Origin: an uncultured Spirochaetales bacterium
GTDB lineage: Bacteria; Spirochaetota; Spirochaetia; SZUA-6
Assembly: GCA_964596425.1 (NCBI GenBank)
Contig: CAZQTC010000023.1
Location: 648,190-712,189, forward strand
Length of the DNA: 64,000 nucleotides
Direction of reading: 5' to 3'
Shown here: positions 13,016 to 51,337 of the stretch, piece by piece
Numbering within the stretch: position 1 is the stretch's first letter
Layout of the letters: each line of letters opens with the position of its first letter
Notes under the pieces: model-generated
Told to the model about the DNA's origin: nothing
Database searches by the model: none
Seen by the model: the letters and a program-made list of their open reading frames with translations, nothing else
Translations under genes and position numbers: made by a program

Positions 13016-13088
13016 GGGCGGTTAGCTCAGTTGGGAGAGCGTCTGGTTTACACCCAGAAGGTCATAGGTTCGAGCCCTGTACCGCCCA
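13016..13088 (+). tRNA. tRNA-Val (anticodon TAC)
   Basis: A manual cloverleaf fits. The acceptor stem is GGGCGGT/ACCGCCC and the D arm is GCTC..GAGC. The anticodon stem is TCTGG/CCAGA with loop TTTACAC. The T arm is ATAGG-TTCGAGC-CCTGT and the discriminator is A. No CCA is encoded. Confidence 0.85.
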
Positions 13089-17310: not shown

Positions 17311-17384
17311 TGGGCGACACTGGACTCGAACCAGTGACCCCTAGCGTGTCGAGCTAGTGCTCTAACCATCTGAGCTAGCCGCCC
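17311..17384 (-). tRNA. tRNA-Val (anticodon GAC)
   Basis: The reverse complement GGGCGGCTAGCTCAGATGGTTAGAGCACTAGCTCGACACGCTAGGGGTCACTGGTTCGAGTCCAGTGTCGCCCA folds as a cloverleaf. The D-loop GGTTAGAGC and T-arm GGTTCGAGTCC are very close to the E. coli tRNA-Val(GAC) pattern. The anticodon loop is TCGACAC, which has C at position 33 where U is usual. Confidence 0.8.
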
Positions 17385-19432: not shown

Positions 19433-22400
19433 TTACTTATGGGCGCCCTGTGTCATAAATTCCTGATATCGCTCCATAAGATCCACCTTCTGCTCGGAGG
19501 TTAGTTTCTTAGATTCTTTGGAGCGTTCTATGACAGTTCGTCTTACAGAGGGATCCGGGTCTGTAACAAGCTCATACAATACCTCATAGGGCGTATTGGA
19601 GTGCCTTGCCACGCCAACCCTAATCTCTGTATGCACAGATTTAGCCAATTTTCGCAGGGTTTGTGGACGTGTCTTTTTATTTAATACCTTTTCAAGCGCA
19701 TCCATATACGAGCGGGAATGACTCTCAAGCTCGTTATAATCAGACCAGCGTTCCGTTCCATCGTGATTCACTATCATACAGGTAGCCTTGTCCCCCTGAG
19801 AGTAAAAATACTCCGTGGTCTCAAATGTCTCTTTGGGGGGCGAAATCGTACCCGTTGTCCCGTTAACAGTAACTATAACACCATCCTCTATCATCTCATG
19901 GACAGTTTTATCATAGTTAACATCAAAACCCGTAACAATAGGGATAGTAAGGTACTCCTTTGCCATCTCAATTACACGAGAGAGAGTCCCCCCCCTTTCG
20001 GAAACAATCCCCTTTAAATGGGGATCGGAAAAGTAACGTCCAATATTTTTACTAAGATTGTTGGTTAAAAGAATATAATCCTCATCCGATTGATTTGGGT
20101 CCAAACGCTCTATGTAGCGAATCTTACCGGTTATCTCTCCAGGCAAAGCACCCATACCTTTGATTTTTTTACCTGTATATACCCTATCCGTTTTTTGTAT
20201 TAACTTAATCAACCCGTACTCCGGATCAATCTGAACCTCCTCGCCCTGATAGGGGGCCAGTAACTTCACCGCATCCTTGTTGAGAAGCAATGTAATACCC
20301 TTACCCTTAGTAACTATCGCAGAGTGACTCCCAGGCCCCCCGGCCTCCACAACAAGGGCATTTATCTTGTTAAGATCAACCTCTACACCAGGCTTTAGCT
20401 CGTGCACAACAACTATATCATTCTCTCTAACCACGGAGAGATCACTGTCATCCTCAATCACGTGAATCCACCCCGTCGTTAACGGTCCTCGGGTTACCAC
20501 AGTACCCTTAAATATCTCTTTTCCCACGTAATAGGCTCCCTTTCTCTGTTTGAGCAACTTACTCACCTCAATAAAGAAACGCGTTTTTAACCCGTAAATC
20601 GTTCTTGTACCATAAAATATATTTCGCTTCTCTACTTTAAATGCAAGCTGTACCTTCATCCCTTCAGCCATCCTTGCAAGCTCTTCAGTGGCCTTACTAA
20701 TATGAATCAATTTATCCAAAAGTCCATCAGCAGTAAGGAAAAAATTCTCTGTGATCTCTGCATCCCGACAGCGTCTAAAGTTGAGATAGTACCCCCCCTT
20801 AGTTGGAACTCCCCAAAAGACATCACCAGAAAAAAATTCCGGGAGGGAATTCAGCATTTTCCCCCGGGGTTCTATCCCTCTTCTTCCGTACAAGCCAAAG
20901 GAAACTCTCTTAAAATCCGGAAGTGCAATAACAAAACCATCCTTTGAAATAAAATACTTGACCCTACGTTTCCGCTTCTGGAAAAATAATAGGAGGGTAT
21001 TTCCTAATTTCTTATCGCGTATCGGAAGTACACTTTTATCCGGTTTGGGACTTCTAAGAAAAGGAAAAGTTTTTCTTATATAGTTAATGAAAAATTTCTC
21101 CTCTGAAAATTTTTTCTTAACAAAGGGCAGCAACAGATAACGTCTCTCTTGGGGACTAAGCTTATCGTAGTCTTCGTCTGTTTTTACCGGATGGTCCTTA
21201 AAGAAATCCGGAAGTTTGGAAATCCATCCCCTGGGAGACTCCAAAATGCTCTGTTTCACATAGTAAGCCGTTCTTAAAACAATACTAAAGAGATTTTCAT
21301 AATCAAGAATAAAGGCGAGAATATCAGCCTCTCTTCGAGGCAGAGTTCTTATATTCCTCAATATTTTTTTGTATGGATTATACTCGAAAATCGTCAATCG
21401 CGAACCAAGGTACCTATCTTTACTATCATAAATATCATGAACCTTAATTCCAACTCCAACAGGTTTAATCCAATACCCATTAATCTGCACGATATCTTCA
21501 TCATCAATCTTATAGGGAAGCCATATATTAATATTAATTCCATAACCTGTGGTAATAATATACCTCTCCCCCCATTGTTGCCTTACCGCATCCCGTTCTA
21601 TTAGAATCCCACGTTTATTCCTATGAAGAGCGGGTTTCTCCGGATAGGGACCCTTATGCTCTTCCTTCTGGCCAAGTTTATGAAAAGTATCCGCAAGTCC
21701 AGAGTTGTGGATCTCCATAATAGGGGAAAACTCACTATCATCGCATAGATACGAGAGATCACCCTCCTCCCAACCATCAAAAACAATATTTCCCCCTAGA
21801 AGTTCGGGTACCCCGGATACAGGGGGGTAAAGCTCCAACTCCCGCATCATGTGGCTTGCTATGGCTCTATCCTCACCTACAATTATGTTAAAAGCCCCGG
21901 ACTCACAGTAATTACACATAGAATCCTGACCGAATGATAGACTTTTATTTTTGATAAAATCTTCCAAGTTATGGAGGGGAACAAATAAATTACCTGATTC
22001 CAGGGTTTTCCTAATCTCAACCACATCCATGGAAACAATTTTTCTAAAATCCTTTATCGCCTGGACAGGATTCTCGTTAAAAATCCGTTCGAAATCCTCC
22101 TGTAAATATTTGAGCCGTCCGGAGACAAGGTACTTCCATTTGCTCAATTTTTCTTCATTAATCTCCAACACAAATGCTAATGTCCAGTGAAAATCCTTCA
22201 GCAAACCATTCTGCAGATCCTCCCTCTTTAAAAGGGTGGATTTTGACTCTATAAGATCCAAGGCGACAACAAGATCCTCCCGGTTAATAGCCGATAATGT
22301 CTTTAAAAGATCGATCGCGGGTTTTGTGGAAAAAGAGTTTCTAAAACCATCTAAAATTATACGGGTAGTACCAACCCTTATCTTTTTATACACCTCGTAG

Positions 22401-23482
22401 ACCCGATCGATTAATGAGTTGGTAAGATTGCTAAAAACAAAAACCAGATCCGAAAGCCGATGCCCAACATTGCCACCTGCCTTCTCCACAATCTGATCCA
22501 GAAAATACAAACCCAAAACAGTAAGTATCTTTTTGGTACTCTCAGAGCCAAGTTCATCAAAGAGATCCAAAAGTCTGTTTATCTCACGAAAGTTAAAAAT
22601 AATAGCATTTTCTGTCTCTTCGTTATGAATCAAACTCTTAAGAATATCCCATGCCTCGGCTCGTACATAGCTATACGTCTCTAATGTATGTGCAATAATA
22701 CTCGCAGGATCCCTGTGAGTCTTTTTCATAACCGCCTGAAACATTGTTTCTATAACAATCTCGTAAAGCGGAACCTCGCGTTTTTGATGAAGTGCCGAGA
22801 GAATATAAAAAACCGCTCTTATCGTTTCTTTACCCGGCGGTTCCTTTAAAAATACCAGATTATTCTCCACTTTTATTGCAAAGCTATTATCAGGATCATT
22901 TATCAAAGATATAAAGGAATGTTCCAATCCTTTAGAACCGGCCTCGGGATTCAAAGCCTGATTTACCGCATCAATATACGCATTAATAGCCGCCCCCATT
23001 ATATCGTAATCCACAAAAGAACCTATGAAGGTCTTCCCTGTCTTTGTATCATCGACTTGAATCGTAACCTCAACCAACCCCTCAATTCTGTGTGCTACCA
23101 TCCTGATCTCAATAGGATGATTCGCATTTAACCTAAACCTTTCCTCCCCACTTGCATTCTGAGCTGCCTTTACCGCAGTATTAACCACACCCTCTACCTC
23201 AGTAGCAATACCCCTAATTTTCTTGCCATCTATATCCAGAAGAACCTCAGCATTGTAGAATCCTCGTCTTTTAGATGATTGCATTGAATATGAAACGAGA
23301 GAAACATTGGGAGCTTTCTGGCTTACAGAGATAGCGGCTAACAGCTGTTCGGTATCTATTCCCTCGGAGAAAATATGTTCAATCTCCTGGAGTTTTTCGG
23401 TGAGTCTTATCTCATCTTCACTTATCTTTTTTAAAAAAATATTTTTCTCACTCTTTAAATCACTCTTTGTTAAACGTTCCAC
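19433..23482 (-). CDS. Large multidomain protein with tandem PEP-utilizing-enzyme mobile (swivel) domains
   Basis: A 1349-aa protein. Two PEP-utilizers-like segments sit near the C-terminus. The first (VVEAGGPGSHSAIVTKGKGITLLL) keeps a His. The second (SERGGTLSRVIEMAKEYLTIPIVTGFDV...VNGTTGTI) has Arg in place of the His. The N-terminal roughly 190 aa resembles the LeuA C-terminal regulatory domain (..IMGAAINAYIDAVNQAL). The C-terminal tail has a HEAT-like repeat (ELVTDPDPSVRRTV). The track start is a GTG. Confidence 0.6.
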   Translation of the reverse strand: MERLTKSDLKSEKNIFLKKISEDEIRLTEKLQEIEHIFSEGIDTEQLLAAISVSQKAPNVSLVSYSMQSSKRRGFYNAEVLLDIDGKKIRGIATEVEGVVNTAVKAAQNASGEERFRLNANHPIEIRMVAHRIEGLVEVTIQVDDTKTGKTFIGSFVDYDIMGAAINAYIDAVNQALNPEAGSKGLEHSFISLINDPDNSFAIKVENNLVFLKEPPGKETIRAVFYILSALHQKREVPLYEIVIETMFQAVMKKTHRDPASIIAHTLETYSYVRAEAWDILKSLIHNEETENAIIFNFREINRLLDLFDELGSESTKKILTVLGLYFLDQIVEKAGGNVGHRLSDLVFVFSNLTNSLIDRVYEVYKKIRVGTTRIILDGFRNSFSTKPAIDLLKTLSAINREDLVVALDLIESKSTLLKREDLQNGLLKDFHWTLAFVLEINEEKLSKWKYLVSGRLKYLQEDFERIFNENPVQAIKDFRKIVSMDVVEIRKTLESGNLFVPLHNLEDFIKNKSLSFGQDSMCNYCESGAFNIIVGEDRAIASHMMRELELYPPVSGVPELLGGNIVFDGWEEGDLSYLCDDSEFSPIMEIHNSGLADTFHKLGQKEEHKGPYPEKPALHRNKRGILIERDAVRQQWGERYIITTGYGININIWLPYKIDDEDIVQINGYWIKPVGVGIKVHDIYDSKDRYLGSRLTIFEYNPYKKILRNIRTLPRREADILAFILDYENLFSIVLRTAYYVKQSILESPRGWISKLPDFFKDHPVKTDEDYDKLSPQERRYLLLPFVKKKFSEEKFFINYIRKTFPFLRSPKPDKSVLPIRDKKLGNTLLLFFQKRKRRVKYFISKDGFVIALPDFKRVSFGLYGRRGIEPRGKMLNSLPEFFSGDVFWGVPTKGGYYLNFRRCRDAEITENFFLTADGLLDKLIHISKATEELARMAEGMKVQLAFKVEKRNIFYGTRTIYGLKTRFFIEVSKLLKQRKGAYYVGKEIFKGTVVTRGPLTTGWIHVIEDDSDLSVVRENDIVVVHELKPGVEVDLNKINALVVEAGGPGSHSAIVTKGKGITLLLNKDAVKLLAPYQGEEVQIDPEYGLIKLIQKTDRVYTGKKIKGMGALPGEITGKIRYIERLDPNQSDEDYILLTNNLSKNIGRYFSDPHLKGIVSERGGTLSRVIEMAKEYLTIPIVTGFDVNYDKTVHEMIEDGVIVTVNGTTGTISPPKETFETTEYFYSQGDKATCMIVNHDGTERWSDYNELESHSRSYMDALEKVLNKKTRPQTLRKLAKSVHTEIRVGVARHSNTPYEVLYELVTDPDPSVRRTVIERSKESKKLTSEQKVDLMERYQEFMTQGAHK

Positions 23483-23559: not shown

Positions 23560-23970
23560 TCATCTCAAAAAAAACCGACCTCGCATTATAAATTGTAATG
23601 GAGACCTAGCACCCCTTACATCAAAAGAAACAAACTCCACCCCACCCCCTGGAATCTTTTTAACTCGATATATATACACAATCGGTGGATCAAAATACCT
23701 ATCAACAGCATTGACAGGCTTAAAATGCCTTATAGCAAACTCCCATCTGGTTCCGTTCTTTTTGAAATTTCCTTCAAATATAGCCTTCCCTCTAGCACTC
23801 TGCTTCACAAAGATGAACTTATCATCCTTAATGGAGAGAGTTTCCTTTATCTTAAGAGTAGCCTCGGTTCCCTTAAAAATCAAAGTACGCTGATATACCG
23901 TAGTAGCACAAGAAACAAGAAAAAGAAATAGAACAGAAAACATTAAAAGATAAGAGATTTTTCTTCCCAT
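23560..23970 (-). CDS. Hypothetical lipoprotein
   Basis: Lipoprotein signal peptide MGRKISYLLMFSVLFLFLVSC with an LVSC lipobox. Confidence 0.5.
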   Translation of the reverse strand: MGRKISYLLMFSVLFLFLVSCATTVYQRTLIFKGTEATLKIKETLSIKDDKFIFVKQSARGKAIFEGNFKKNGTRWEFAIRHFKPVNAVDRYFDPPIVYIYRVKKIPGGGVEFVSFDVRGARSPLQFIMRGRFFLR

Positions 23971-24009: not shown

Positions 24010-24354
24010 TTAATCTCCAGAACTCGAACTTAAATTTTCCGAGTAATCAGGGGAAGAAGAATCAGAAAGGGAATCAATAGAAAGCACCCGCTGAAGATGG
24101 CTAAATACAGGCAAACCCAACCTTATCTGGTACTGCATAAGATCTTTCTCATAGTTGTTTCTACCACAGAGATAATCCCTAAAGGTTAATTCAATTCCCT
24201 TTACACGCAATGCAATCATTTTTCGCAGCAAAGAGCGAAGAAGTTTAGCATTTTCGTCATTACCCGATATTTCATTAAGGCGCTTAAGGTCCTTACGGAG
24301 TAATTTTTCCATTTCAGCAAGACTCGCAATCCAACTCTTCATAAATCTCCCCAC
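24010..24354 (-). CDS. Hypothetical protein (114 aa) downstream of cheY, own GGGGAG RBS
   Basis: ORF with GGGGAG 5 nt upstream of the ATG. The N-terminal half is helical and charged and the tail is Ser-rich and acidic; no recognisable domain. Confidence 0.4.
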   Translation of the reverse strand: MGRFMKSWIASLAEMEKLLRKDLKRLNEISGNDENAKLLRSLLRKMIALRVKGIELTFRDYLCGRNNYEKDLMQYQIRLGLPVFSHLQRVLSIDSLSDSSSPDYSENLSSSSGD

Positions 24355-24495: not shown

Positions 24496-24933
24496 CTACT
24501 TCTTAAGAACCATTAAGACTCGCTCAAGAACCTTCTTTCTGTCAAGAGGCTTAACAATATAATTCTTAGCTCCAAGCAACAATGCTTTTTTTACAAGGTC
24601 TTGTTTTCCCAGAGCACTAATCATTATAACCTTTGCATTTTTATCAAACTCTAAAATCTTCTCCAATGCAGTAATGCCATCCATTTTAGGCATAGTAATA
24701 TCCATCGTTACAAGATCAATATTGGGGTACAATTCCTTATATTTTTCAACCCCCTCCTCACCGTCAGAGGCAGTGTCGGCTATCTCAAATCCTTCAGAGT
24801 TTAATATCTGGGTTATCTGTTTTTTCACAAACATTGAATCATCCACTATTAAAACACGATACGGGGTACCATCTTCCTTTATCCCATCAGGTTCTCTCTC
24901 ATTTATGCTCGGAAAATCCGTCTTTGTCTTCAT
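24496..24933 (-). CDS. cheY: Chemotaxis response regulator CheY
   Basis: Single REC domain: RVLIVDDS..., phosphoacceptor LVTMDITMP, SALG, KPL. Confidence 0.85.
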   Translation of the reverse strand: MKTKTDFPSINEREPDGIKEDGTPYRVLIVDDSMFVKKQITQILNSEGFEIADTASDGEEGVEKYKELYPNIDLVTMDITMPKMDGITALEKILEFDKNAKVIMISALGKQDLVKKALLLGAKNYIVKPLDRKKVLERVLMVLKK

Positions 24934-24945
24934 TTATTTTCCTCC

Positions 24946-25410
24946 CTAATTTTTTTCACGTACGGCAACGTTTATTTCAAGTTTTCCCAATGGCATCTCT
25001 ATAGGCACTATCAAAGCCTCAACAGAGACATCTGAGACCTCCATTTTTTTACCGGTAAATATAGCCGGTGGAGTAATATCAAACTTAAAACCAAGCTCCG
25101 ATAATTTAGTAACCGCCTGAGCTGTAATCATATTGGCAAGCTCGGTAATTGTTGCCTTTGTTAAATCATCCAATTTCGTCATCTGCTCACCATTCATTGC
25201 AGATGCTATTGCCAACGCTGTTTCTTCTGTCATATCAAATAACACCCTTCCCTCAACATCACCAGTCAACCCTATTATTGCAGTAACCCCTAAAACAGGC
25301 TGTGAGGATGATTTTAAATATAATTCTCCTCTTGTCAATTCCGTACCCAGAACTTCCTTAAGAATGTTAAATGCTGCTTCCACAAAAGGATTAATATACT
25401 CGACACGCAT
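24946..25410 (-). CDS. cheX: CheY-P phosphatase CheX (CheC/CheX family)
   Basis: A 154-aa protein beginning MRVEYINPFVEAAFNILKEVLG with a CheC-like fold pattern, in the canonical spirochete position between cheW and cheY. Confidence 0.75.
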   Translation of the reverse strand: MRVEYINPFVEAAFNILKEVLGTELTRGELYLKSSSQPVLGVTAIIGLTGDVEGRVLFDMTEETALAIASAMNGEQMTKLDDLTKATITELANMITAQAVTKLSELGFKFDITPPAIFTGKKMEVSDVSVEALIVPIEMPLGKLEINVAVREKN

Positions 25411-25443
25411 TGTCTCCCCCTTTTAAATCTTCTCAAAATTAAT

Positions 25444-26772
25444 TTAATACTTTTCCACTTTATAGGCTATCACATTTCCCTCCTGGAGCTTATACCACTC
25501 CTTCGCTGGCAATGTCTCATTTAATCCGAGAATCACAATTCCACCCTCATTCAACATCGTTTTAAACTGATCGATCAACCACTCCTGTTTATCTGGTTTC
25601 TGAAAAGAGAGAATATCCCTCGCAACTATTATGTCCTGTTTTGGGTAATCGTTTCTATTAAGGACATCATGATACTCAAAGGTTATTAAATCTTTTATCT
25701 CACGCTTAAATCTATACCTACCACTATCTACCTCTTCAACAAACCCGTTATCCAACATAAAACTTGGTATTTGATCTTTAGAAACTACCAGATTAGGGGC
25801 TGTGGATATATTGAGTAAATCTTTATCATTAGCCCACACCTTTATCATGTTGTTTTTATACCTATCCCGTAAAATCGCCGCTATTGAGTAAGACTCGTAA
25901 CCCTTCCCACACCCCAAATTCCACACATTTATTATTCCCTGATAGCGCTCAGGAAGAATCTTTTGAAGGTTTTCCTTGTAATCGTTTCCCCACAGCATCC
26001 CGGTATAGGGGGAGTAAAAGGGTCGCAAAAAATTCTCAGCATCCGAAGCATTTTCCAACTGAACCTTCTCTCCAGCAGAGGTACGAAGGTTTTTCCACTC
26101 CTCAAATCTTCTCTTTGTCCATTCATAATTTAAGTCAGTGACATAAAAAGACTTAAACGTGACAAGAGTTTCTGCCACAAACTTAAACTCAATATCTTCC
26201 TCATCCGTTTTTACCTTTATCTCTTTTTCCGGTGCTTTGTATTCTATTCTCTCCTCTCGGTCATACGTAGAGGCTAATACCTCCTCCTTACCAAAAATTC
26301 TATCCACATCAAGGATAATATAGAGTTTACTATCACTCTCAACTACCCCGCTTATATATTTAACATTAATATCACTAAAGAGCGGATGAGGAGGCTTTAT
26401 CTCTTCCTTCGCAATTCCAACAACCCTATCAATCTGATCCACTATAACACCAAGGGTAATATCCTCAAGCTTGAGTATAAGAACGTCTTCTTCCCTCTTA
26501 TTAGGATCCATAATAGGAACATGAAACATTTTCCTTAGATCAATTATAGGAATAATCTCACCCCGAAGATTATGCACCCCTCTTACAAATGGAGCAGTAT
26601 TGGGAACCATGGTAAACTTACTCTCTTTAAGAATCTCTTTTATTTTCATTATGTCTATAGCATACTCTTTTCCGCCGAGAGAAAAGGTAATAATCTTAAA
26701 ATCTATCTTTTTCTTTAATTTTTGTTCCTCTGTTAATTCCTGAATTGTATCACTCATATACTGCCCATCCAT
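25444..26772 (-). CDS. CheW-domain protein fused to C-terminal CheR-type SAM methyltransferase domain (CheW3-like)
   Basis: The N-terminal CheW domain reads FSLGGKEYAIDIMKIKEI...VRGVHNLRGEIIPIIDLR. The C-terminal half carries the CheR MTase motifs VWNLGCGKGYESYSIAAIL and DIIVARDILSFQ...EGGIVILGLNE. Confidence 0.75.
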   Translation of the reverse strand: MDGQYMSDTIQELTEEQKLKKKIDFKIITFSLGGKEYAIDIMKIKEILKESKFTMVPNTAPFVRGVHNLRGEIIPIIDLRKMFHVPIMDPNKREEDVLILKLEDITLGVIVDQIDRVVGIAKEEIKPPHPLFSDINVKYISGVVESDSKLYIILDVDRIFGKEEVLASTYDREERIEYKAPEKEIKVKTDEEDIEFKFVAETLVTFKSFYVTDLNYEWTKRRFEEWKNLRTSAGEKVQLENASDAENFLRPFYSPYTGMLWGNDYKENLQKILPERYQGIINVWNLGCGKGYESYSIAAILRDRYKNNMIKVWANDKDLLNISTAPNLVVSKDQIPSFMLDNGFVEEVDSGRYRFKREIKDLITFEYHDVLNRNDYPKQDIIVARDILSFQKPDKQEWLIDQFKTMLNEGGIVILGLNETLPAKEWYKLQEGNVIAYKVEKY

Positions 26773-26777
26773 ATAAT

Positions 26778-29078
26778 CTATACTATAGTGGTAGATTTAA
26801 CTCTCTCACTCTCATGCTTAAGCCCAAGCTCGAGGAGCTGATTAACATCTAAAATCAACGCTACCGTACCATCACCAAGAATAGTTGCACCTGCTATGCC
26901 AGGGGTGTTTGTAAACCTATCACGCAGTGGCTTAATAACCACATCTTCCTCACCAATCAAAGAATCCACCATAAGTCCAACCTTTTTATCACCACTTCCA
27001 ACGATCACTATAAAGTAGAATTGCCGATTCTCATCCGTGGGGATTCTAAACAACCTATTCAACCTCAATAGAGAGAGTACATCTTTGCGTATATTAAAAA
27101 CCTCGTAACTATCGAGCATTTTTATCTCGGATGGCTTTATACGCAGACTCTCGATTACAGAGGTAATAGGAATAGCATAGATCTCTTCTCCTACCTTCAC
27201 GAGCAAACCTTGAATAATTGCCAATGTTAAGGGAAGTTTTATCGTAAATGTTGTACCCTTACCTTTCTCGGAAAATACCTCGACCGTCCCATTCAACTTC
27301 TCAACCTGTTTTCTTACAACATCAAGTCCTACACCTCTTCCCGATATATTGGTAATCTTTGTAGCCGTTGAAAACCCAGGCTCAAAGATAAGGTTAAACG
27401 CCTCAATATCGGTTAAACTCTTATTTGGATGTATCAAACCCCTCTCAACAGCTCGTTTCTTGACCGCCTCCACATCGATACCCTTACCATCGTCCGAGAT
27501 TTCGATAACAATCATGTTTCCTTCATTTCTCGCCTTAAGAAGAATATGACCCTCTTCCGACTTTCCAGTCTTAACCCTCTCGGTCGGGGACTCAATTCCA
27601 TGGTCAATAGAATTCCTAACACAGTGAATCAATGGATCGAGTAAATCTTCAATTACTGACTTATCAAGCTCTGTATCTTCACCCTCTATATCCAATACTA
27701 TCTTCTTCTTCAAATTTTTCGATAGATCCCTAACAAGCCTCGGAAACCTCGAAAATATCTGAGAAACGGGGACCATTCTTATTCTCATAACCCCTTCTTG
27801 AAGATCCCCTGTAATCCTACTTAAGTTTTGAGCGTTACTCCTAAATTGATTAACTGTTGCCTTTAAATTGGCTTCAAAATTATCAAATATATTAAAGAGT
27901 TCCCCGAAATTTTCTTGAAGTTCTTTCTTTATCGAGACACCGTTACGCCCATTGTTACTGGTAAACGATTCTATTCTCTCCTCTATAAAAGCGAAGAGAT
28001 CCTTTAACTTTTCTCTATACAGAACCTGGGTTTCCTGCAACTCTTGTAAATTACTAACAAATGTATTAGCAATCTGATTAAATGTAGCCTTATTAATTAC
28101 AGTTTCACTTACAAGATTTAAAAGATCATCAACTCTACTACTATCAACACGTAACACAGAACCATGGACTACAGGTTTCTTAACCTGTTTCTGTTTCTGA
28201 ACCTCTTCAACTTTTTCGGGTTTCCCAACTGCCTCTTTCTCCGGAGGTTTTTCCTCTTTCCTCTCTTCACCTTCCTTTGACTTTTCACTCTCCTCTCCCC
28301 TTGCCGTCGAGACAGGCTCCACCACAGAGGCAAGAGTTACATCGGGTATCTCGCAAATTTTCTGTATCTCCTCCGGTTTCTCCTCGGTAGCAACCCAATA
28401 CTCCACCTCGGGATAAAAATTATCCTCATAGAGTTTTTCGAATTCGGGGGTAGTTTTAACTATTCTCCCTATCTCCTTTAGCGCTGCATATACCTGAACC
28501 CCTCCAACCGTATTCATTACATAATCCGGATTAAATTTTACAGTTACCTTGTAAACCGTCGAACTTTTAGCTATCTCTTCTATCTCTAACTTCTCAAGCT
28601 CGCTAAGTTCTTTAAGCTCCGGTTGAGAAGTAGTTGTTTCCTCTTTCTTAGCCCTCTCGGTCTTCGTATCGGCTTTCTTCTGGTCTCCAAGCAATGATTT
28701 TAAAGCCTCGGCCGTTTCACTAATATCCTCGCTATACACCTCCCCACTCAAACGAGCTTCGAGCATTGCCTTAATTATATCAAGAGACGTCAAGAGTTGA
28801 TCCACAACCTCCGGGGTTGTACGTAAATTGCCCGAACGAAGCTCGTCCAACACATCCTCCACTATATGGGTAAACTCCGCTATTTCATTCATTTCTACCG
28901 TAGCGGCGCCTCCCTTTAGTGTATGAGCCGCCCTAAAAATTTCATCTATGGCTTCATGGTTATCAGGTTCGTTCTCCAGAAGCAAAATATTCTGTTCCAG
29001 AGTTTCCACCTGAGCCTGAGCTTCTTCGAAAAAATCCTTTAAAAGCTCTTCGTTTGCCGGATCTAAATAATCACTCAT
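26778..29078 (-). CDS. cheA: Chemotaxis histidine kinase CheA
   Basis: HPt motif HTLKGGAATVEM; HATPase G-boxes (NSIDHGIE, DDGKGID, GRGVGLDVV); C-terminal CheW-like domain. Confidence 0.9.
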   Translation of the reverse strand: MSDYLDPANEELLKDFFEEAQAQVETLEQNILLLENEPDNHEAIDEIFRAAHTLKGGAATVEMNEIAEFTHIVEDVLDELRSGNLRTTPEVVDQLLTSLDIIKAMLEARLSGEVYSEDISETAEALKSLLGDQKKADTKTERAKKEETTTSQPELKELSELEKLEIEEIAKSSTVYKVTVKFNPDYVMNTVGGVQVYAALKEIGRIVKTTPEFEKLYEDNFYPEVEYWVATEEKPEEIQKICEIPDVTLASVVEPVSTARGEESEKSKEGEERKEEKPPEKEAVGKPEKVEEVQKQKQVKKPVVHGSVLRVDSSRVDDLLNLVSETVINKATFNQIANTFVSNLQELQETQVLYREKLKDLFAFIEERIESFTSNNGRNGVSIKKELQENFGELFNIFDNFEANLKATVNQFRSNAQNLSRITGDLQEGVMRIRMVPVSQIFSRFPRLVRDLSKNLKKKIVLDIEGEDTELDKSVIEDLLDPLIHCVRNSIDHGIESPTERVKTGKSEEGHILLKARNEGNMIVIEISDDGKGIDVEAVKKRAVERGLIHPNKSLTDIEAFNLIFEPGFSTATKITNISGRGVGLDVVRKQVEKLNGTVEVFSEKGKGTTFTIKLPLTLAIIQGLLVKVGEEIYAIPITSVIESLRIKPSEIKMLDSYEVFNIRKDVLSLLRLNRLFRIPTDENRQFYFIVIVGSGDKKVGLMVDSLIGEEDVVIKPLRDRFTNTPGIAGATILGDGTVALILDVNQLLELGLKHESERVKSTTIV

Positions 29079-29203
29079 AATCGTATTAAATGATATATAA
29101 ACTACCCATTAAGTCAAGTAGAATGTATTTTTTATTGACACCCCTATTTCATAAAGCTAAGCTACCCATATACTTACCGCAAATAATTATGCCGGAGGAA
29201 AAA

Positions 29204-29911
29204 ATGGAATTTATCGTTGTTGAACACTCTCCTCAGATAAGAGAAAACCTGTGCTATATCCTACTAACACTCGGTGTAAAAGGAATCCCTGTGGCTAACA
29301 AAGATGAGGCACTAGAAATATTAAAGAACAAAGATATTAGTGGTGCAATCATTGATGTCGATAATAAAGAGGTGGAAGGACTTAAGTTAATAGAAGAAAT
29401 AAAACACAATGAAAAAACAAGAAACATTCATATAATTGTACACTCCGTACAATCTCAAAAAGAATTCGTGCTTAAAATGGTAGAAATGGGGGTTGTTGGA
29501 TACCTTCTCAAACCAATGGAAGAGGAAACAACAACGGAAAAATTAAAAAAAATTCTACAAAAATTAGAAACACATAGATTAGAAAGAAAACACATCAGAG
29601 TAAAACCAGACCCTGAAGAGATTCCAAGGCTACATTTTAGATTAACTGAGTATCCCAAACTAATTTCAGGGAAAATACTGGATATAAGCATGGGAGGAGT
29701 TGCCGTAGAATTATTCAATCCTCCACCGGAAGGGGTGCTACAGCCAAAAATGAAAATCCCCTCAATCCAATTTACACTCCTGAACAAACAAATAAATGCA
29801 GAGGGAGAAATCGTAATAGCAAGGGGGAACGTTATAGCCATAAAGTTCACAAATATACCAAGGGAGGATAGTATAAACCTTGCCAAGTATATATTCAAAC
29901 AAATATCCTGA
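29204..29911 (+). CDS. CheY-like receiver (REC) domain fused to PilZ c-di-GMP-binding domain
   Basis: GGAGG lies 7 nt upstream of the ATG at 29204. The REC-like N-terminus has FIVVEH, GAIIDVD, IIVHS and GYLLKP. The PilZ motifs are RKHIR (RxxxR) and DISMGG (DxSxGG). It is divergent from cheA. Confidence 0.65.
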   Translation: MEFIVVEHSPQIRENLCYILLTLGVKGIPVANKDEALEILKNKDISGAIIDVDNKEVEGLKLIEEIKHNEKTRNIHIIVHSVQSQKEFVLKMVEMGVVGYLLKPMEEETTTEKLKKILQKLETHRLERKHIRVKPDPEEIPRLHFRLTEYPKLISGKILDISMGGVAVELFNPPPEGVLQPKMKIPSIQFTLLNKQINAEGEIVIARGNVIAIKFTNIPREDSINLAKYIFKQIS

Positions 29912-29975
29912 CCAATTTCACAAATTTGATTTTTTTGAAATAAGAACTACAATTTTAGTGGAGGGAAAATTAAAC

Positions 29976-31148
29976 ATGAGAAAATTAAGTACGATAAGCA
30001 AATGTTCCAAATATAAAATTAGCAAATTGTTGAAAGTAAAAATTGTCATTTTCCTAGTAACGCTAACCCTTATTCCTTATAGAGTATTTTCTGCCAATGT
30101 AACGGTACCCTACTTAGAACTTATCACCAGAGGAACCGTCCAAAACGGATTGTATCAATTAACAACAAAGGGAGAAATGGATCTTGTAGTTGAAGGCGGA
30201 TACAAATTTGGAGGCAAATTAATCTTAAGCTACAATAGTGATAACCTGGAAACAAACTCATTAACGGACAGTCTCACTTTTAAAGGGGCCAGTGTAAGCA
30301 TCAAAAAACTTCTCTCTTTACCACTAAATTTCTCTTATTTCGTGGGAGAAAATGATACTTTTTGTTCAGGAAGTGATTTTACCAACATATTTGGAAGTAT
30401 TCCCATAACCTCTCAGTACTCTGGATACATATACTTCCCCGAAGGAATAATATATGATGGTATTTATACTATCTCGGGCACAGGTTTGAAATTAAAACTC
30501 ACTCCCACGAACAATTCACTTTACGCCCTCTACCTATACCAAGATTCCAACATAGTTCATACGGTTAACAATGAACAAACAGTATGGCTTGGACATTACT
30601 CAGGCGATTTCAGATTTATGCTCAATACAGAGCATATAAAATTTGAAGCCTTTGCCGGTATGACATTCCCTATCTCAAGCTACGGATACTATAGAGGTGG
30701 ACTTCTATTCTATACAGCCGATCAGGGAGTTGAATTCCTGGCGCAGGTGGGCATCCCAAGATGGGATCCTGCAACCGATCTATTCGGGATAAATTTATTC
30801 TACCTTCTATTCGAACCAAGGGTTCATATGGGATTCTTTTCAATCATACCAACCTTTTTCTGGCATCCGGAGTACTACAACCAAAAAGAAACAGGAGAGC
30901 TTGGTTCCTTCGATGTGAATGTAAATTTTCTATTTGGAAACCCCATTCAGTCACCAATAAGCGGAGGAGTCGAGAGCAATCTCTCCTTTAGTACCATAGG
31001 AAGCCAACAGTTTTTGGTTAAACTTTCCCCTTATATAGGATTTATAACTCAGGGTGTAATGTGGAAATTAAAGATAAATTTCAGACTGTGGCCTTTTTCC
31101 CTTACCAACTTTGTAGAATCATTTATCGGCATCAGGGCTGAATTTTGA
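29976..31148 (+). CDS. Hypothetical predicted outer-membrane beta-barrel protein
   Basis: GGAGGG lies 10 nt upstream of the ATG at 29976. It has a signal/TM segment, alternating hydrophobic/aromatic beta-strand-like composition, and a C-terminal aromatic residue (..RAEF). Confidence 0.45.
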   Translation: MRKLSTISKCSKYKISKLLKVKIVIFLVTLTLIPYRVFSANVTVPYLELITRGTVQNGLYQLTTKGEMDLVVEGGYKFGGKLILSYNSDNLETNSLTDSLTFKGASVSIKKLLSLPLNFSYFVGENDTFCSGSDFTNIFGSIPITSQYSGYIYFPEGIIYDGIYTISGTGLKLKLTPTNNSLYALYLYQDSNIVHTVNNEQTVWLGHYSGDFRFMLNTEHIKFEAFAGMTFPISSYGYYRGGLLFYTADQGVEFLAQVGIPRWDPATDLFGINLFYLLFEPRVHMGFFSIIPTFFWHPEYYNQKETGELGSFDVNVNFLFGNPIQSPISGGVESNLSFSTIGSQQFLVKLSPYIGFITQGVMWKLKINFRLWPFSLTNFVESFIGIRAEF

Positions 31149-31164: not shown

Positions 31165-32076
31165 ATGAGCAAAAGCAAACGAAATACACTCTTATTCACA
31201 TTACTCCTCTTTTTTCTCCTTTCGTTTAGTCTATATTCGCTGGATGTTGGTATAAACTTTCGAATTGGAAATCTCGCTTTTAGGAATGACAGAACCGCCA
31301 ACGATACAACCTTTAACGGAACTAATTACTTTTATGGATTATCACTTTTCACCACAGCCTCTATCTCGGACAATTTTAGCTTTGAAAGCGGTTTCTTTAA
31401 CGATGCTATACTAAAGAATATCTCATACACAATATTCAACTACAGACAAAAATTTATCACCATAGGCGTTGGGCCATTCTTCGGTTTTTTTAACTCAACA
31501 AGCACAATTCTCAAATCCGGGATATCCACAAGCATACTCCTGGAACTTCCAGGAATTGTGTTTCTCCGATTTCGCTCCGACAGTACAATAGGGGGAAGAC
31601 TAATAGAGATTGGTGACTACATCCAGGAACGGAACAATATTTCGGCAGGTTACTACGTAAAAAATGCAATATGCTCTTTAAATCTATCCTCAAAGAAGTA
31701 CATACAAAAGGCGAGTTCCACCATAGAAACTGTCGATAGCCTTACAGAATACTCCTTTAAAACAGAAGTTTTTCAAAAAAATATGCCATACACTATAGAC
31801 ATTGCATTTGCCTACCAGACTCTAAAGAAGGAATTTATAACATCCACAACTACTACAAAACACACTCTAAACTCAATAATTCTAAAAACAAAACTTAAAT
31901 TTTTTATAGAGGAGTACTTGACACTCTACACAGATCTGGAGAGCAGCATCTATACCTTCGGCGAGGATGCACTCCTCGGGATATCCAATCCAGGCCCGGG
32001 AGGGTATCTTTTCCGATTAAATACAGGCGTTACACTTAACCTTGACAAAATCGTAAAACTCAACAGGATATTCTAA
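31165..32076 (+). CDS. Hypothetical predicted outer-membrane beta-barrel protein
   Basis: AAGGAG RBS; signal peptide MSKSKRNTLLFTLLLFFLLSFSLYS; Tyr/Phe-rich beta-like repeats; C-terminal Phe (..NRIF). Confidence 0.45.
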   Translation: MSKSKRNTLLFTLLLFFLLSFSLYSLDVGINFRIGNLAFRNDRTANDTTFNGTNYFYGLSLFTTASISDNFSFESGFFNDAILKNISYTIFNYRQKFITIGVGPFFGFFNSTSTILKSGISTSILLELPGIVFLRFRSDSTIGGRLIEIGDYIQERNNISAGYYVKNAICSLNLSSKKYIQKASSTIETVDSLTEYSFKTEVFQKNMPYTIDIAFAYQTLKKEFITSTTTTKHTLNSIILKTKLKFFIEEYLTLYTDLESSIYTFGEDALLGISNPGPGGYLFRLNTGVTLNLDKIVKLNRIF

Positions 32077-46139: not shown

Positions 46140-48338
46140 ATGATGAGTAAAGAAGCAAGAGAAAACGATGATATTTCTCTATCCAGTACTGAGTTAGACT
46201 CTATACTAGAAAGTGCAGATGAAGTAACAGAGAACCAAGAAAAGGAAGAAGAAAATATAGAGGAATACGGTGTTTGGGTTAAAGTAGAACCCGAGGATGT
46301 AGAAGAAGAGATAAAGAAAGAGGAAACAGACAAGGGCTACGAACTTTCGGATTTAGAAAGTGAAAGAGAAGAAAATCCATTAACAGACGAGGAAGAGAAA
46401 TTGCTTGGAGAACTAGAAGAAAGAATTAAAGATAAAGAAAAACTATCCGGGACACAAGAAACAAATGAGGAACTACCCGATTTAGAAATAGAGGATCTGG
46501 AAGACATTGATCTGTCGGAGGATATAGAATTACCGGATATAGAATTACCCGAAGAAGAAACATTGGAGGAAACTCCAAAGGCAGAAGAAACAAAAGAAGA
46601 AACAAAAACGGAAGAGATAAAAGATAGGATCTCACCATCATCTGAGGAGAAAGTTGTATCAGAAACAACGCCTGAGTCAGAAGAGATGTCAATAGACCTT
46701 GAAAACCTGGAAGAAGTAGCGGAGGAACCTTCCTCCGAAGAACTCTTAGAAGAGTTAAATACTGAGAATCCATTCGAGGAGGACGCCGAGAGCTTAGAAA
46801 TTGAAGAACTACCAAACCTGGAAGAGGGTGAAGAGACCACGGAGGAGACCCCATCTTTAGGAGGGGAGAGAGAATCTCTAGAAATACCAGAGGAAAATCT
46901 TCCGGGTTTAGAAGAGACAGATCTAGAAAATCTCACAATTGAAGAACCGGAAATAGAACCTCTGGATCTCTCCGAAGACATAGGGGAAGTAGAAACAGAA
47001 GAAACACTTCCAACTGCGGAGAACGAAATAGAGGAAATCGAATTGGAAGAATCCCCACTGGAAGAAAAAGAAGAATCAACGGAAGAGTTACCTAAAATGG
47101 AAAATGAAACCGAGGAAAGCGAGTCCAATGAGCCTATTGAAGAGATTAGCCTTGAAGATTTCGGGATAGAAGAAACACCCCCAGAGGGCGAATTGCCGCC
47201 AGCAGGAGAGACATCAGAGGAGGAAGAGAAAAAGGAAGAGGAGATAGAGGTTCCCCTTAGTGAACAGGTAGTAACGGATGAACATTTTGATGATCTCGGC
47301 GCTTTAGAAAAGGAATTAACGGAAACGGAAGAAGAATCAATAGAGAGTAGGCCGGAGGTTTCTCAAGAGGATACCTATAAGCCCACAGGAATGACCGAAG
47401 AGAATTCTGCAACTATACTCCTCAAAATCGAAAAGGAGTTGAGTGAAATAAAGAACGATCTGGTAGAACTAAAAAGGGAACTCTCCGTCTTAAAAGAAAT
47501 ACCAACCATTAAAGAAGCGAAAGAACCCTCAAGGGCCGAGACAGAAGAAAAGGCCAGAGAGTCAACGGGCTTTTTTGAAGATTCCGAAGAAGACGAGACT
47601 ATAGCATTAACCAACGATGAGCTAGACAATATTTTAAGTAGTGCTGATATTACAGAAGAGGTGGTTGAAGAAAAACCAATTGTGATAGAAGAGGAACAGG
47701 CTCCCCAACAACCAAAGGAAACTTTGGAAGAAATTTCTCAAACAGAAACACCAGAGGAAGGGCCGTCTGAAGAATCATTGATGGACAAAGAGGATATCTT
47801 AAAATATGAAGAAGAAATAGGAAAAGAAAACATCCCTCAACAAGAAACCCCGCAAGAAATCTCTTTAGAGGAAGAGCAAGAGGTTTCAGAGGAAAAGCCA
47901 GAAATAGAAGAGATAGAACTGGAAATACCGGAGGAGGAAGAGCCAGTCCAGGCTCAAACTCCATCAATTTCTCCGGAAGAACCTCAACAACCCGCCGAGA
48001 TAACAGAAGAGGAGAGCGAAAAACCGGAAGAGATAGAACTGGAAATGCCAGAAACAGAAACACAAGGGGAGAAGGAGGAAGAAGCATTACAAGAAGAACG
48101 TGCTCCAGGTGAAAAAGAGACAACCCGGGAAGAAGAAATATCAACAGAAGGAGAAATAGAAAAACCTCAGGAGGAGAAAAAAATACCTGATGACTTAAAG
48201 GAAGAGATCAAGTCGGTACTTGCATATATGGATCAACTCCTTGAGGCTCTTCCTGAAGAAAAAATTCAGGAATTTGCTCGTTCCGAGTACTTTGGTGTAT
48301 ATAAAAAATTATTTGAAGAATTAGGATTAGGAACCTAA
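46140..48338 (+). CDS. Extremely acidic Glu-rich low-complexity protein (732 aa) with conserved N- and C-terminal segments
   Basis: By eye, about 45% of the central 650 aa are Glu. Repeated E-x-P-E-E-I-E-L-E units are present. A 24-nt direct repeat gaagagatagaactggaaat occurs at about 47910 and about 48022. The ELDxILxSADxTE motif occurs twice. The C-terminal tail has ordinary composition (SVLAYMDQLLEALPEEKIQEFARSEYFGVYKKLFEELGL). Confidence 0.7.
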   Translation: MMSKEARENDDISLSSTELDSILESADEVTENQEKEEENIEEYGVWVKVEPEDVEEEIKKEETDKGYELSDLESEREENPLTDEEEKLLGELEERIKDKEKLSGTQETNEELPDLEIEDLEDIDLSEDIELPDIELPEEETLEETPKAEETKEETKTEEIKDRISPSSEEKVVSETTPESEEMSIDLENLEEVAEEPSSEELLEELNTENPFEEDAESLEIEELPNLEEGEETTEETPSLGGERESLEIPEENLPGLEETDLENLTIEEPEIEPLDLSEDIGEVETEETLPTAENEIEEIELEESPLEEKEESTEELPKMENETEESESNEPIEEISLEDFGIEETPPEGELPPAGETSEEEEKKEEEIEVPLSEQVVTDEHFDDLGALEKELTETEEESIESRPEVSQEDTYKPTGMTEENSATILLKIEKELSEIKNDLVELKRELSVLKEIPTIKEAKEPSRAETEEKARESTGFFEDSEEDETIALTNDELDNILSSADITEEVVEEKPIVIEEEQAPQQPKETLEEISQTETPEEGPSEESLMDKEDILKYEEEIGKENIPQQETPQEISLEEEQEVSEEKPEIEEIELEIPEEEEPVQAQTPSISPEEPQQPAEITEEESEKPEEIELEMPETETQGEKEEEALQEERAPGEKETTREEEISTEGEIEKPQEEKKIPDDLKEEIKSVLAYMDQLLEALPEEKIQEFARSEYFGVYKKLFEELGLGT

Positions 48339-49681
48339 TGGGGCTTCTTCAAAAAGCTGATAGTCTAACTCAGAAAAAATCCTCCCGAGGAAGAGGACTT
48401 TTAAAACGCACATTAGAAATTCTCGAAAAAAATAAAACAAGTGAGGGTTATCCTACATTACCCCATCAAGAAGAAAGCAAATCCAAAACACGAACCTATA
48501 TCTCTCAAGAAGAGGTGGATCGTCTCCTCAAAGAGAGCAACAAGCGCAAAGAATATATAAGAAAAAACCTCCAGAACTGGAAAAAACACAAAAAGGTACC
48601 TACAGTACCTCTCACATGGGCCGAAGCCAATAGAGAAGCACCCACAATAACGCGTGACCCCACAATAAGAGAAGAGGATATCGAAACTCTTCTTAAAAAT
48701 AACAATAATAAAACTAAAGAAGAAAAGATGGGCGATTCTAGCACATCGGAATTGCTCATCGATAACTTGGATCTGTTACATAGAATGATCGAAGAGACAC
48801 CAGAGGGTATAGAAACACCAATAGCCGTGTTTTCCAAACTAAAAGAGTTTTTATCAATAAAAAAGGGAGCCATTCTTCTCTACGACCCACTGAGGATGGT
48901 GTTTGCTCCCTGGGCCAGTGTGGGTTATGACAAAACAACGCTTCACCGAATGCGAATTCCCATTGGTTTTTCTGAAAGTTTTAATTCAATAACGGGGGGC
49001 AACATAACTACTCTTCACGAGAATCTCGATGAGTACAGAAAATTTTTTTCAAACAGAGAGTTTAATCTTATAAACAGACTCATCTTCGTGCCTTTCATTT
49101 TCAACGAAAAGTTAATTGCTCTATTACTCATTCAAGAAGTAAGAGAGGGAATTACAGAGGAAAATCTAATTTCAATGTTCAAAGAACTTTCGCCTATAAT
49201 CTCTCAAAAAATATACAATGCAAGAGAGAAAAAATTCAAACTCCTAAAGGTGATGCAACCCGAAGAATTTGAATCTATCCGTGAAAAAATTCAAAGTGAC
49301 ATAAAAAGAGCACAAACCAACGAGAAAAAAGTAATTGCTTTACTACTATCTCTGGAAAATGTTACCGGCACTTTACCTAAAGAGATCATTGCTCATTCGG
49401 ATCAATATCGAATCAGTGAAGATATTGAAAAAATTCTAAAATCACTCTTTTACTCAACAGGGCGCGTATTCAAACTGAACAACTTCAATTACCTCATAGA
49501 CATCTTTAACATTAGAGAGCCTGACATGGAACTAATCCTAGATCAGCTCTTGTATAATCTCAATTATTTTCTGACAGATAAAAGCACCCATTTGGACCTT
49601 CATAACAAAATAAACTATAAATACAAAATTTTCCCCGATGAGGCAAAAACAGAAAGTGAATTACTCTCCGGACTCATCTAG
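48338..49681 (+). CDS. Hypothetical protein with central GAF-like region, translationally coupled to the acidic protein
   Basis: Its ATG overlaps the upstream TAA (TAATG). Residues roughly 140-290 have a GAF-like alternation; the C-terminal 150 aa are unassigned. Confidence 0.45.
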   Translation: MGLLQKADSLTQKKSSRGRGLLKRTLEILEKNKTSEGYPTLPHQEESKSKTRTYISQEEVDRLLKESNKRKEYIRKNLQNWKKHKKVPTVPLTWAEANREAPTITRDPTIREEDIETLLKNNNNKTKEEKMGDSSTSELLIDNLDLLHRMIEETPEGIETPIAVFSKLKEFLSIKKGAILLYDPLRMVFAPWASVGYDKTTLHRMRIPIGFSESFNSITGGNITTLHENLDEYRKFFSNREFNLINRLIFVPFIFNEKLIALLLIQEVREGITEENLISMFKELSPIISQKIYNAREKKFKLLKVMQPEEFESIREKIQSDIKRAQTNEKKVIALLLSLENVTGTLPKEIIAHSDQYRISEDIEKILKSLFYSTGRVFKLNNFNYLIDIFNIREPDMELILDQLLYNLNYFLTDKSTHLDLHNKINYKYKIFPDEAKTESELLSGLI

Positions 49682-49697
49682 AGGCAACTAACTTTAA

Positions 49698-51335: not shown

Positions 51336-51337
51336 AA

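Follow-up and report, generated by a model that had tools for sequence, protein, structure and literature searches.

Within a 64,000-nucleotide stretch of contig CAZQTC010000023.1 from an uncultured Spirochaetales bacterium (in the following, the window), a single uninterrupted open reading frame (ORF) of 1349 codons with a GTG start occupies positions 19433-23482 of the minus strand and very probably represents a real gene for a protein of non-standard architecture. Along the chain, a LeuA_dimer domain is followed by about 800 orphan residues, a swivel domain of the phosphoenolpyruvate (PEP)-utilizer type bearing the phosphorylatable histidine, a second swivel domain bearing an arginine instead, and a short helical-repeat tail. 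Sequence comparison suggests, with a probability of roughly 0.45, that the gene product is a soluble, strongly selected and allosterically gated swivel phosphocarrier protein in a previously undescribed architecture. The ORF is not a chance one, as orthologs exist at 67-85% identity and nonsynonymous divergence (dN) is low while synonymous divergence is saturated. A membrane-spanning segment is not predicted in the 1349-aa protein (maximal 19-residue Kyte-Doolittle mean of 1.28). The following features were assigned, with residue numbers and main evidence.

19433-23482, minus strand: whole ORF, 1349 aa (orthologs P0001-P0004, 67-100% identity over 99% of the length)
22955-23347, minus strand: LeuA_dimer-type allosteric/dimerization domain, residues 46-176 (Pfam PF08502; C-terminal end of NCBIfam 2-isopropylmalate synthase)
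21998-22942, minus strand: orphan region A, residues 181-495, predicted all-helical at low confidence (AlphaFold2 pLDDT <50, helices throughout; no match in Pfam, PDB or library)
21263-21997, minus strand: orphan conserved core, residues 496-740 (alignment with the distant copy L008)
20528-21262, minus strand: orphan region C, residues 741-985, helices and then repeated beta-beta-beta-beta-alpha units (AlphaFold2)
20189-20527, minus strand: swivel domain 1, residues 986-1098, with His1053 (codon 20324-20326) in GGPGSHSAI (Pfam PF00391, best stretch 1019-1086)
19835-20188, minus strand: swivel domain 2, residues 1099-1216, His-less, with Arg1169 (codon 19976-19978) in GGTLSRVIE (NCBIfam PRK08296.1-5; PDB 2hro, 5hv1)
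19436-19834, minus strand: linker and LRV/HEAT-like helical-repeat tail, residues 1217-1349, repeats from about residue 1271 (Pfam LRV/HEAT_2, AlphaFold2, Foldseek)

Domain organization and the two swivel domains

PF00391 (PEP-utilizers) matches the protein in two stretches with 60.1 bits (cut-off 23.1, E value 1.5e-16), and the NCBIfam models set the boundaries of the swivels at about residues 986-1099 and 1099-1214, the latter with PRK08296.1-5 at an E value of 1.1e-13. The second swivel is additionally backed by PDB matches to enzyme I (2hro) and rifampin phosphotransferase (RPH, 5hv1/5fbs). In the HMMER alignments, GGPGSHSAIV of swivel 1 pairs with GGRTSHAAIV of PEP synthase 8a8e, placing H1053 on the catalytic histidine, while GGTLSRVIEM of swivel 2 pairs with GGRTSHSAIM of enzyme I 2hro, placing R1169 in the catalytic histidine column. 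The phosphorylatable histidine of the GGxTS/CH motif is present in the first copy, then, but missing from the second. H1053 and the surrounding GGxxSHSAI are the same in all intact sequence clusters of the family, and the histidine is also kept in relatives of about 36% identity. R1169 is an arginine in all four intact clusters, and a relative of about 36% identity reads ERGVRLAQIANFARIYLSIPVMTGF at swivel 2, with glutamine in the histidine column; hence, the loss of the histidine is old and not an alignment artefact. Between the swivels, BLASTP finds no similarity and self-comparison with hhalign does not reveal repeats, giving no sign of an internal duplication.

The N-terminal domain (residues 46-176) scores 30.9 bits against PF08502 (cut-off 24.9) over profile positions 9-130 of 131, and NCBIfam models for 2-isopropylmalate synthase (LeuA) match only with their regulatory end (positions 356-516, the C-terminal ~120 residues). 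In LeuA, the PF08502 domain binds the feedback inhibitor at the dimer interface. At the other end of the protein, LRV matches residues 1286-1322 with 19.6 bits, below its cut-off of 21.6, and HEAT_2 does so weakly (E value 0.26). The last 90 residues are modelled as confident helical repeats (pLDDT 70-94), for which Foldseek gives alphaREP with a probability of 0.97 but an E value of 0.12.

A first-pass annotation, drawn from the letters and the ORF translations, had already described a regulatory domain, some 800 unknown residues, an active and an inactive swivel as an unfamiliar layout, and the Pfam, NCBIfam and PDB matches agree with it. The three strings that it quoted were all located, GSFVDYDIMGAAINAYIDAVNQAL at residues 154-177, GGPGSHSAIVTKGKGI at residues 1048-1063 including His1053 and GGTLSRVIEMAKEYLTIPIV at residues 1164-1183 including Arg1169. 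Its assignment of the N-terminus to LeuA_dimer stands with a score above the curated cut-off, as do the histidine in an SHSAI context in swivel 1 (aligned with that of 8a8e) and the arginine replacing it in swivel 2 (aligned with the histidine of 2hro); its concern that the His-less copy could be an artefact is answered by the NCBIfam and PDB matches together with the conserved arginine. Regarding the HEAT-like tail, the helices of the model are in line with the annotation, but LRV stays below cut-off and the alphaREP match at an E value of 0.12.

Missing dikinase domains and the orphan region

Besides the swivels, no part of a PEP synthase (PEPS), pyruvate phosphate dikinase (PPDK) or enzyme I was found. 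PPDK_N, PEP-utilizers_C and HMGL-like as well as HPr and EIIA domains gave no match at E ≤ 1 in the full protein (Pfam, NCBIfam), this also applying in Pfam to the HMGL-like catalytic TIM barrel of 2-isopropylmalate/citramalate synthase. When the profile of residues 181-990 was compared by hhalign with E. coli PpsA, probabilities of 0.4% for the ATP-grasp half (residues 1-345) and 0.9% for the C-terminal TIM-barrel half were obtained. The NCBIfam models of PEP synthase, PPDK, enzyme I, RPH-like proteins, PigC and DhaM match the swivel segments only. Likewise, the HPr-binding helical subdomain of enzyme I was not found, with TIGR01417 matching only at positions 146-234 of 565 and the PDB searches adding no enzyme I region, and a RIF-type substrate-binding domain, as in HpeH and PpsA, was not detected with the NCBIfam models. 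A standard PEPS, PPDK or enzyme I architecture was rejected, as swivels alone match in Pfam, NCBIfam, PDB and the hhalign comparison with PpsA, and the view of the first-pass annotation that neither a PPDK-type ATP-grasp domain nor a PEP-binding TIM barrel is present is thereby sustained. PADLOC models for anti-phage defence (E ≤ 0.1) and a search of a plasmid collection gave no match. In the full-text literature searched, neither this architecture nor a tandem of active and dead swivels is described.

The region between the LeuA_dimer domain and the first swivel has no detectable relatives outside the family. An exhaustive HMMER search of 1.84 billion cluster representatives with the profile of residues 181-990 returned 7 proteins, all of them family members or short pieces, and PDB profile searches with the family alignment gave matches confined to the swivels, so that this stretch is as unrecognizable as noted at first reading. 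When the intact proteins are aligned with L008, the least damaged of the distant copies, conservation peaks at residues 496-740, where 62% of the columns do not vary between the four intact clusters. Motifs that this core retains even at about 38% identity are PLxNxxDFxKNxxLSFxQDxxCNYCES with an invariant CxxC (C523/C526), LLGGNIVF, TTGYGININ, GxGIKxHD and IHNSGLxDTxHKxGQKxExxGPYPxKPALHRNKRGIxIERDAxRQ. Invariant Gly, His, Arg, Lys and Cys residues packed this closely would be expected where a ligand is bound or a reaction catalyzed. The CxxC pair, encoded at 21905-21916 on the minus strand, represents two of the few cysteines of the protein (0.4% Cys), and a metal site near C523/C526, possibly together with the invariant H592, H601 and H620, is conceivable from this pattern.

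AlphaFold2 models reached a mean pLDDT of only 52 for residues 181-990 and 50 for residues 850-1349, due to the shallow alignment, and the usable parts are restricted to residues 640-990 and the last 90 residues. Modelling of the middle region, which the first-pass annotation had advised, was thus of little use overall, being confident from about residue 640 to 990 and below a pLDDT of 50 in the remainder. A weak beta-beta-beta-beta-alpha resemblance to PUR-alpha/Whirly proteins seen in the modelling is not significant.

Conservation, selection and decay of the family

Among 5.8 billion sequences, the family comprises four clusters at the 90% identity level, all full length and 100, 85, 71 and 67% identical to the protein of the window; a second homolog search retrieved the same four clusters and no more. 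All four come from metagenome-assembled genomes (MAGs) labelled Spirochaetales or Spirochaetota. As to the phylogenetic distribution, a point which the first-pass annotation had marked for follow-up, the family has so far been found only in a few marine or hydrothermal lineages of uncultured spirochetes. A genome scan gave 3 loci and a metagenome scan 6; one of the latter, L004, is an intact close copy of 77% identity whose contig also carries the L002/P0003 ortholog.

Between the window gene and the 85% ortholog, dN ranges from 0.05 to 0.17 with synonymous sites at or beyond saturation, and the lowest values among the domains are those of swivel 1 (0.048) and swivel 2 (0.053). With a mean pairwise identity of 82%, the His-less swivel ranks top among all domains. 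Judged by these substitution patterns, purifying selection acts on every domain, the His-less swivel included.

All five of the distant copies with 37-41% identity (L005-L009, on the metagenome contigs Ga0164310, Ga0164318, Ga0190359, Ga0190361 and Ga0180300) are broken. L005 and L006 have frameshifts and in-frame stops in common and miss the N-terminal half, L007 has kept the LeuA_dimer-like domain and the first helical part but lost the middle, L008 is interrupted by a frameshift and has no swivel 2, and a large deletion affects the interior of L009. Upstream of the L006 copy, parA/parB and the remnant of a DPPY-type methyltransferase are located. Also in a close relative (L020, 7122-7945), the gene breaks off after about residue 117 and gives way to a DDE-transposase-like frame, reflecting either insertion of an insertion sequence (IS) or an assembly break at an IS. 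The gene is under strong selection in some lineages and has been discarded in others.

Chemotaxis neighborhood

The gene is the last of seven on the same strand, the preceding ones being a chemotaxis operon and two small genes.

24496-29078, minus strand: che operon overall, cheA to cheY (same order in L002, L001, L011/L012 and L018-L020)
26778-29078, minus strand: cheA (Pfam)
25444-26772, minus strand: cheW-cheR fusion, 442 aa, with CheW at residues 27-163 and the S-adenosylmethionine-binding CheR domain at 257-431 (Pfam; fusion in all syntenic loci)
24946-25410, minus strand: cheX (Pfam)
24496-24933, minus strand: cheY (Pfam)
24010-24354, minus strand: small helical protein with a conserved core of about 88 aa (conserved upstream gene)
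23560-23970, minus strand: lipoprotein, 136 aa, lipobox LVSC (in every syntenic locus)

The position directly downstream of the che operon plus two small genes, as already noted in the first-pass annotation, is conserved in five lineages, that is, in all with visible context; of its placement, the shared strand and the downstream location were right, while the strand itself, which had been left unstated, is the minus strand. The seven-gene order cheA, cheW-cheR, cheX, cheY, small gene, lipoprotein gene and the large gene is found at 85% (L011/L012), 71% (L002) and 67% identity (L001) and also in L018-L020. Since synonymous divergence is saturated, this synteny goes beyond trivial relatedness.

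Nevertheless, a functional tie to chemotaxis, suggested by gene position only, is doubtful, and a serious contender, cutting across all other interpretations, is that a metabolic or housekeeping enzyme merely happens to be encoded beside the che operon. Consistent with this, the distant decayed copies lie by parA/parB or peptidase genes, the wider family of the small helical protein occurs beside genes for S-methyltransferase and S-adenosylhomocysteine (AdoHcy) hydrolase, and the intergenic gaps of 141 bp and 77 bp carry promoter-like hexamers, albeit at chance level. An accidental neighborhood is, however, less easily reconciled with a seven-gene order kept in five lineages despite saturated synonymous sites, while the flank downstream of the large gene varies between the loci.

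The family of the small helical protein has at least 38 clusters and no Pfam domain and is wider than that of the large gene. Its distant members (L014-L017) are encoded beside a PF02574 S-methyltransferase, in L016 and L017 also beside AdoHcy hydrolase, which hints at methyl-group or methionine metabolism rather than chemotaxis. As they sit in such non-che contexts, the small protein is not a dedicated partner; being also found without the large gene, it was rejected as a marker of a dedicated module.

Divergent from cheA, a REC-PilZ gene is located at 29090-29911 on the plus strand, followed by two conserved ORFs (29880-31148 and 31165-32076) without Pfam or NCBIfam match, and the same arrangement is seen in L011 and L018-L020. 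At 46140-53020 on the plus strand, ORFs of 732 aa and 447 aa without Pfam match precede MptE-like/Maf-like ORFs of 545 aa and 560 aa, a cluster that may serve flagellin glycosylation. Two tRNA-Val genes lie about 4 kb apart on opposite strands (13016-13088, plus, anticodon TAC; 17311-17384, minus, anticodon GAC). Over the whole window (1-64000), which has a GC content of about 39%, each 4-kb bin shows a negative GC skew, ranging from about -0.01 to -0.32 with most values between -0.1 and -0.3; genes are mostly on the minus strand.

Proposed function and alternatives

The GGxTS/CH swivel motif has carrying a phosphoryl group between two sites as its sole known role (PMC4844700, PMC12167813). 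Given this role and the invariance of H1053 even at 36% identity, a phosphocarrier function of this residue is suggested, and on the sequence evidence there is about an even chance that H1053 is phosphorylated. In the proposed mechanism, H1053 would be transiently phosphorylated and move the phosphoryl group from a donor to an acceptor site. In the absence of any classical site, the donor site, the acceptor site or both would lie in the core of residues 496-740 or in a partner protein, with at least one of them predicted in this invariant core with its CxxC, invariant His, Arg and Lys residues and Gly-rich loops. For an arrangement outside the three-domain layout there is precedent in HpeH and PpsA, where the ATP-grasp domain resides on a separate subunit (PMC12167813). 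The LeuA-type domain would most plausibly dimerize the protein and gate its activity by binding a small metabolite, analogous to the feedback by Leu or Ile on LeuA and CimA. The dead swivel, conserved better than any other module, is no relic; in the simplest reading, it is a pseudo-domain unable to carry phosphate that might dock in a swivel-binding site, thereby inhibiting the protein itself or recruiting a partner, or else stabilize the dimer. The tail would make protein contacts. The output may bear on chemotaxis or motility, as the operon position suggests.

Several observations weigh against this gated phosphocarrier. In swivel 1, the regulatory threonine of the canonical GGxTS/CH is replaced by glycine, and the stretch SAIVTK following the histidine departs from the consensus AAI/VI/VA/SR (PMC12167813). 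As it is decayed or interrupted there, the gene is dispensable in several populations. The linkage with che genes is limited to one fairly compact clade, distant decayed copies adjoining other genes such as parA/parB and a peptidase gene, and a scan of the locus for promoters and terminators gave nothing above chance. Neither a gene of the phosphotransferase system (PTS) nor a stand-alone ATP-grasp gene is encoded in the 64-kb window. Finally, the AlphaFold2 models are poor, with residues 181-640 and swivel 2 below a pLDDT of 50, and the orphan region could possibly hide a cryptic known fold.

The first-pass annotation had favored an uncharacterized phosphotransfer or regulatory protein over a dikinase. 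A dikinase is, however, also conceivable, its domains for donor and substrate being either novel or too divergent to be recognized, or its ATP-grasp partner being encoded separately, as in HpeHI and PpsAB (PMC12167813). In its single-chain form, which we consider unlikely, the orphan region would comprise a very divergent ATP-grasp and a substrate-binding domain and the protein would work just as RPH or PEP synthase do, transferring phosphate from ATP via pyrophospho-His and phospho-His to a small-molecule substrate, with the regulatory domain and the dead swivel as add-ons. In line with this, the highest scores of both swivels are those against the C-terminal swivels in the RPH-like models PRK06241 and PRK08296, RPH structures (5hv1/5fbs) are among the PDB matches, the order of a large N-terminal part followed by a swivel fits RPH, and invariant loops rich in Gly and in Arg, Lys and His occur in the core; on visual comparison, EDFIKNKSLSFGQDS is reminiscent of EDMPDASFAGQQE in E. 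coli PpsA, which is a lead only. A cryptic ATP-grasp domain of this kind is made less likely, however, by the lack of a PPDK_N match at E ≤ 1 in Pfam and NCBIfam, the hhalign probability of 0.4% against that of PpsA and the restriction of PDB profile matches to the swivels.

Alternatively, the protein could have no donor domain of its own, H1053 being charged in trans by an ATP-grasp subunit or by enzyme I/HPr of the PTS and passing the phosphate on. In DhaM, an enzyme-I-like swivel is charged by the PTS relay. The NCBIfam models DhaM and PTS_I_fam match the swivels weakly, and the SHSAI motif is common to Staphylococcus enzyme I. Swivel and ATP-grasp parts are separate proteins in HpeHI, CreHI and PpsAB, where HpeI charges HpeH and PpsB charges PpsA (PMC12167813). 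Yet, such a relay acceptor appears quite improbable, as ATP-grasp (PPDK_N), ptsI and ptsH genes were found neither in the window nor in the syntenic loci and the RIF-type substrate domain defining HpeH and PpsA was not detected. Very unlikely is a non-catalytic scaffold or regulator in which neither swivel transfers phosphate and the protein acts as metabolite-binding adaptor, since, although the swivel without histidine is nonetheless top in conservation, the NCBIfam pyruvate kinase model PRK06354 matches swivel 1 (in Bacillus-type pyruvate kinases, an extra C-terminal PEP-utilizers domain has been proposed as interaction or regulatory module) and tails of the HEAT/LRV kind typically act as interaction modules, the invariance of H1053 and GGxxSHSAI down to about 36% identity can hardly be accounted for unless their role is catalytic or phospho-regulatory.

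Returning to the gated phosphocarrier, its farthest-reaching and highly speculative extension is a metabolite-gated phosphohistidine donor as new input to spirochete chemotaxis. Here, the LeuA-type domain would be a sensor of a 2-oxoacid or a branched-chain amino acid, the orphan core would charge His1053 from a cellular phosphodonor, and the phosphoryl group, or a conformation that depends on phosphorylation and is read via the dead swivel and the tail, would act on the CheY or CheA encoded upstream. If this were true, motility would respond to metabolic state along a path that has nothing to do with the link between PTS and CheA known in E. coli. More generally, phosphorylation of H1053 would imply a donor or acceptor site of novel type in the orphan core, and a functional che linkage would give spirochete chemotaxis a new input from metabolism. 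The significance is limited by the occurrence in a handful of uncultured lineages, by the decay elsewhere and by the derivation from sequence alone.

Comparison with known systems

The closest parallels are RPH and the split systems HpeHI, CreHI and PpsAB, with which the spirochete protein shares a GGxxSH phosphocarrier swivel placed after a large N-terminal part. In these systems, the swivel can join non-PEP substrate domains and a separate ATP-grasp subunit (PMC12167813, PMC4844700). Swivel 2 matches the C-terminal swivel of RPH (5hv1/5fbs) as well as the PRK06241 and PRK08296 models. Unlike the RPH- and HpeH-type proteins, the spirochete protein is without detectable ATP-grasp or RIF-type substrate domain and, in contrast to RPH, its swivel 1 is not C-terminal but followed by the dead swivel and the repeat tail, with LeuA_dimer at the N-terminus. 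With PEP synthase it shares a swivel 1 aligning histidine on histidine (8a8e, 2ols), but it differs from PEP synthase and PPDK in lacking PPDK_N and PEP-utilizers_C and in the glycine replacing the regulatory threonine of GGxTS/CH.

Similarity to enzyme I is seen in the SHSAI context, as in the Staphylococcus enzyme, and in the alignment of swivel 2 with residues 111-235 of 2hro. In PtsP, where GAF is joined to enzyme I, an N-terminal small-molecule sensor is fused to a phosphohistidine carrier, a logic analogous to that of the spirochete protein. Other than in enzyme I, PtsP and DhaM, however, a PEP-binding TIM barrel, a recognizable HPr-binding helical subdomain, HPr and EIIA are absent. VadK (Rv1127c) is a truncated PPDK acting as regulatory histidine autokinase and not as central metabolic enzyme and, hence, likewise a swivel protein outside the classical dikinase layout, but it has about 50 kDa and an ATP-binding domain, in contrast to the 1349 aa of the spirochete protein, in which none is detectable (bioRxiv 10.1101/2025.10.30.685616). 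As in LeuA and CimA, residues 46-176 carry the C-terminal D-I-x-x-A-x-x-x-A-Y-x-x-A-x-N motif of PF08502, although here the domain is N-terminal and not joined to an HMGL-like catalytic barrel. Known swivel layouts are those of PEPS/PPDK, enzyme I and the RPH-type dikinases, the latter also in split form; to these, the family would add one combining a swivel with a region of about 800 residues without relatives among 1.84 billion representative proteins, a strongly conserved dead copy and a LeuA-type allosteric domain.

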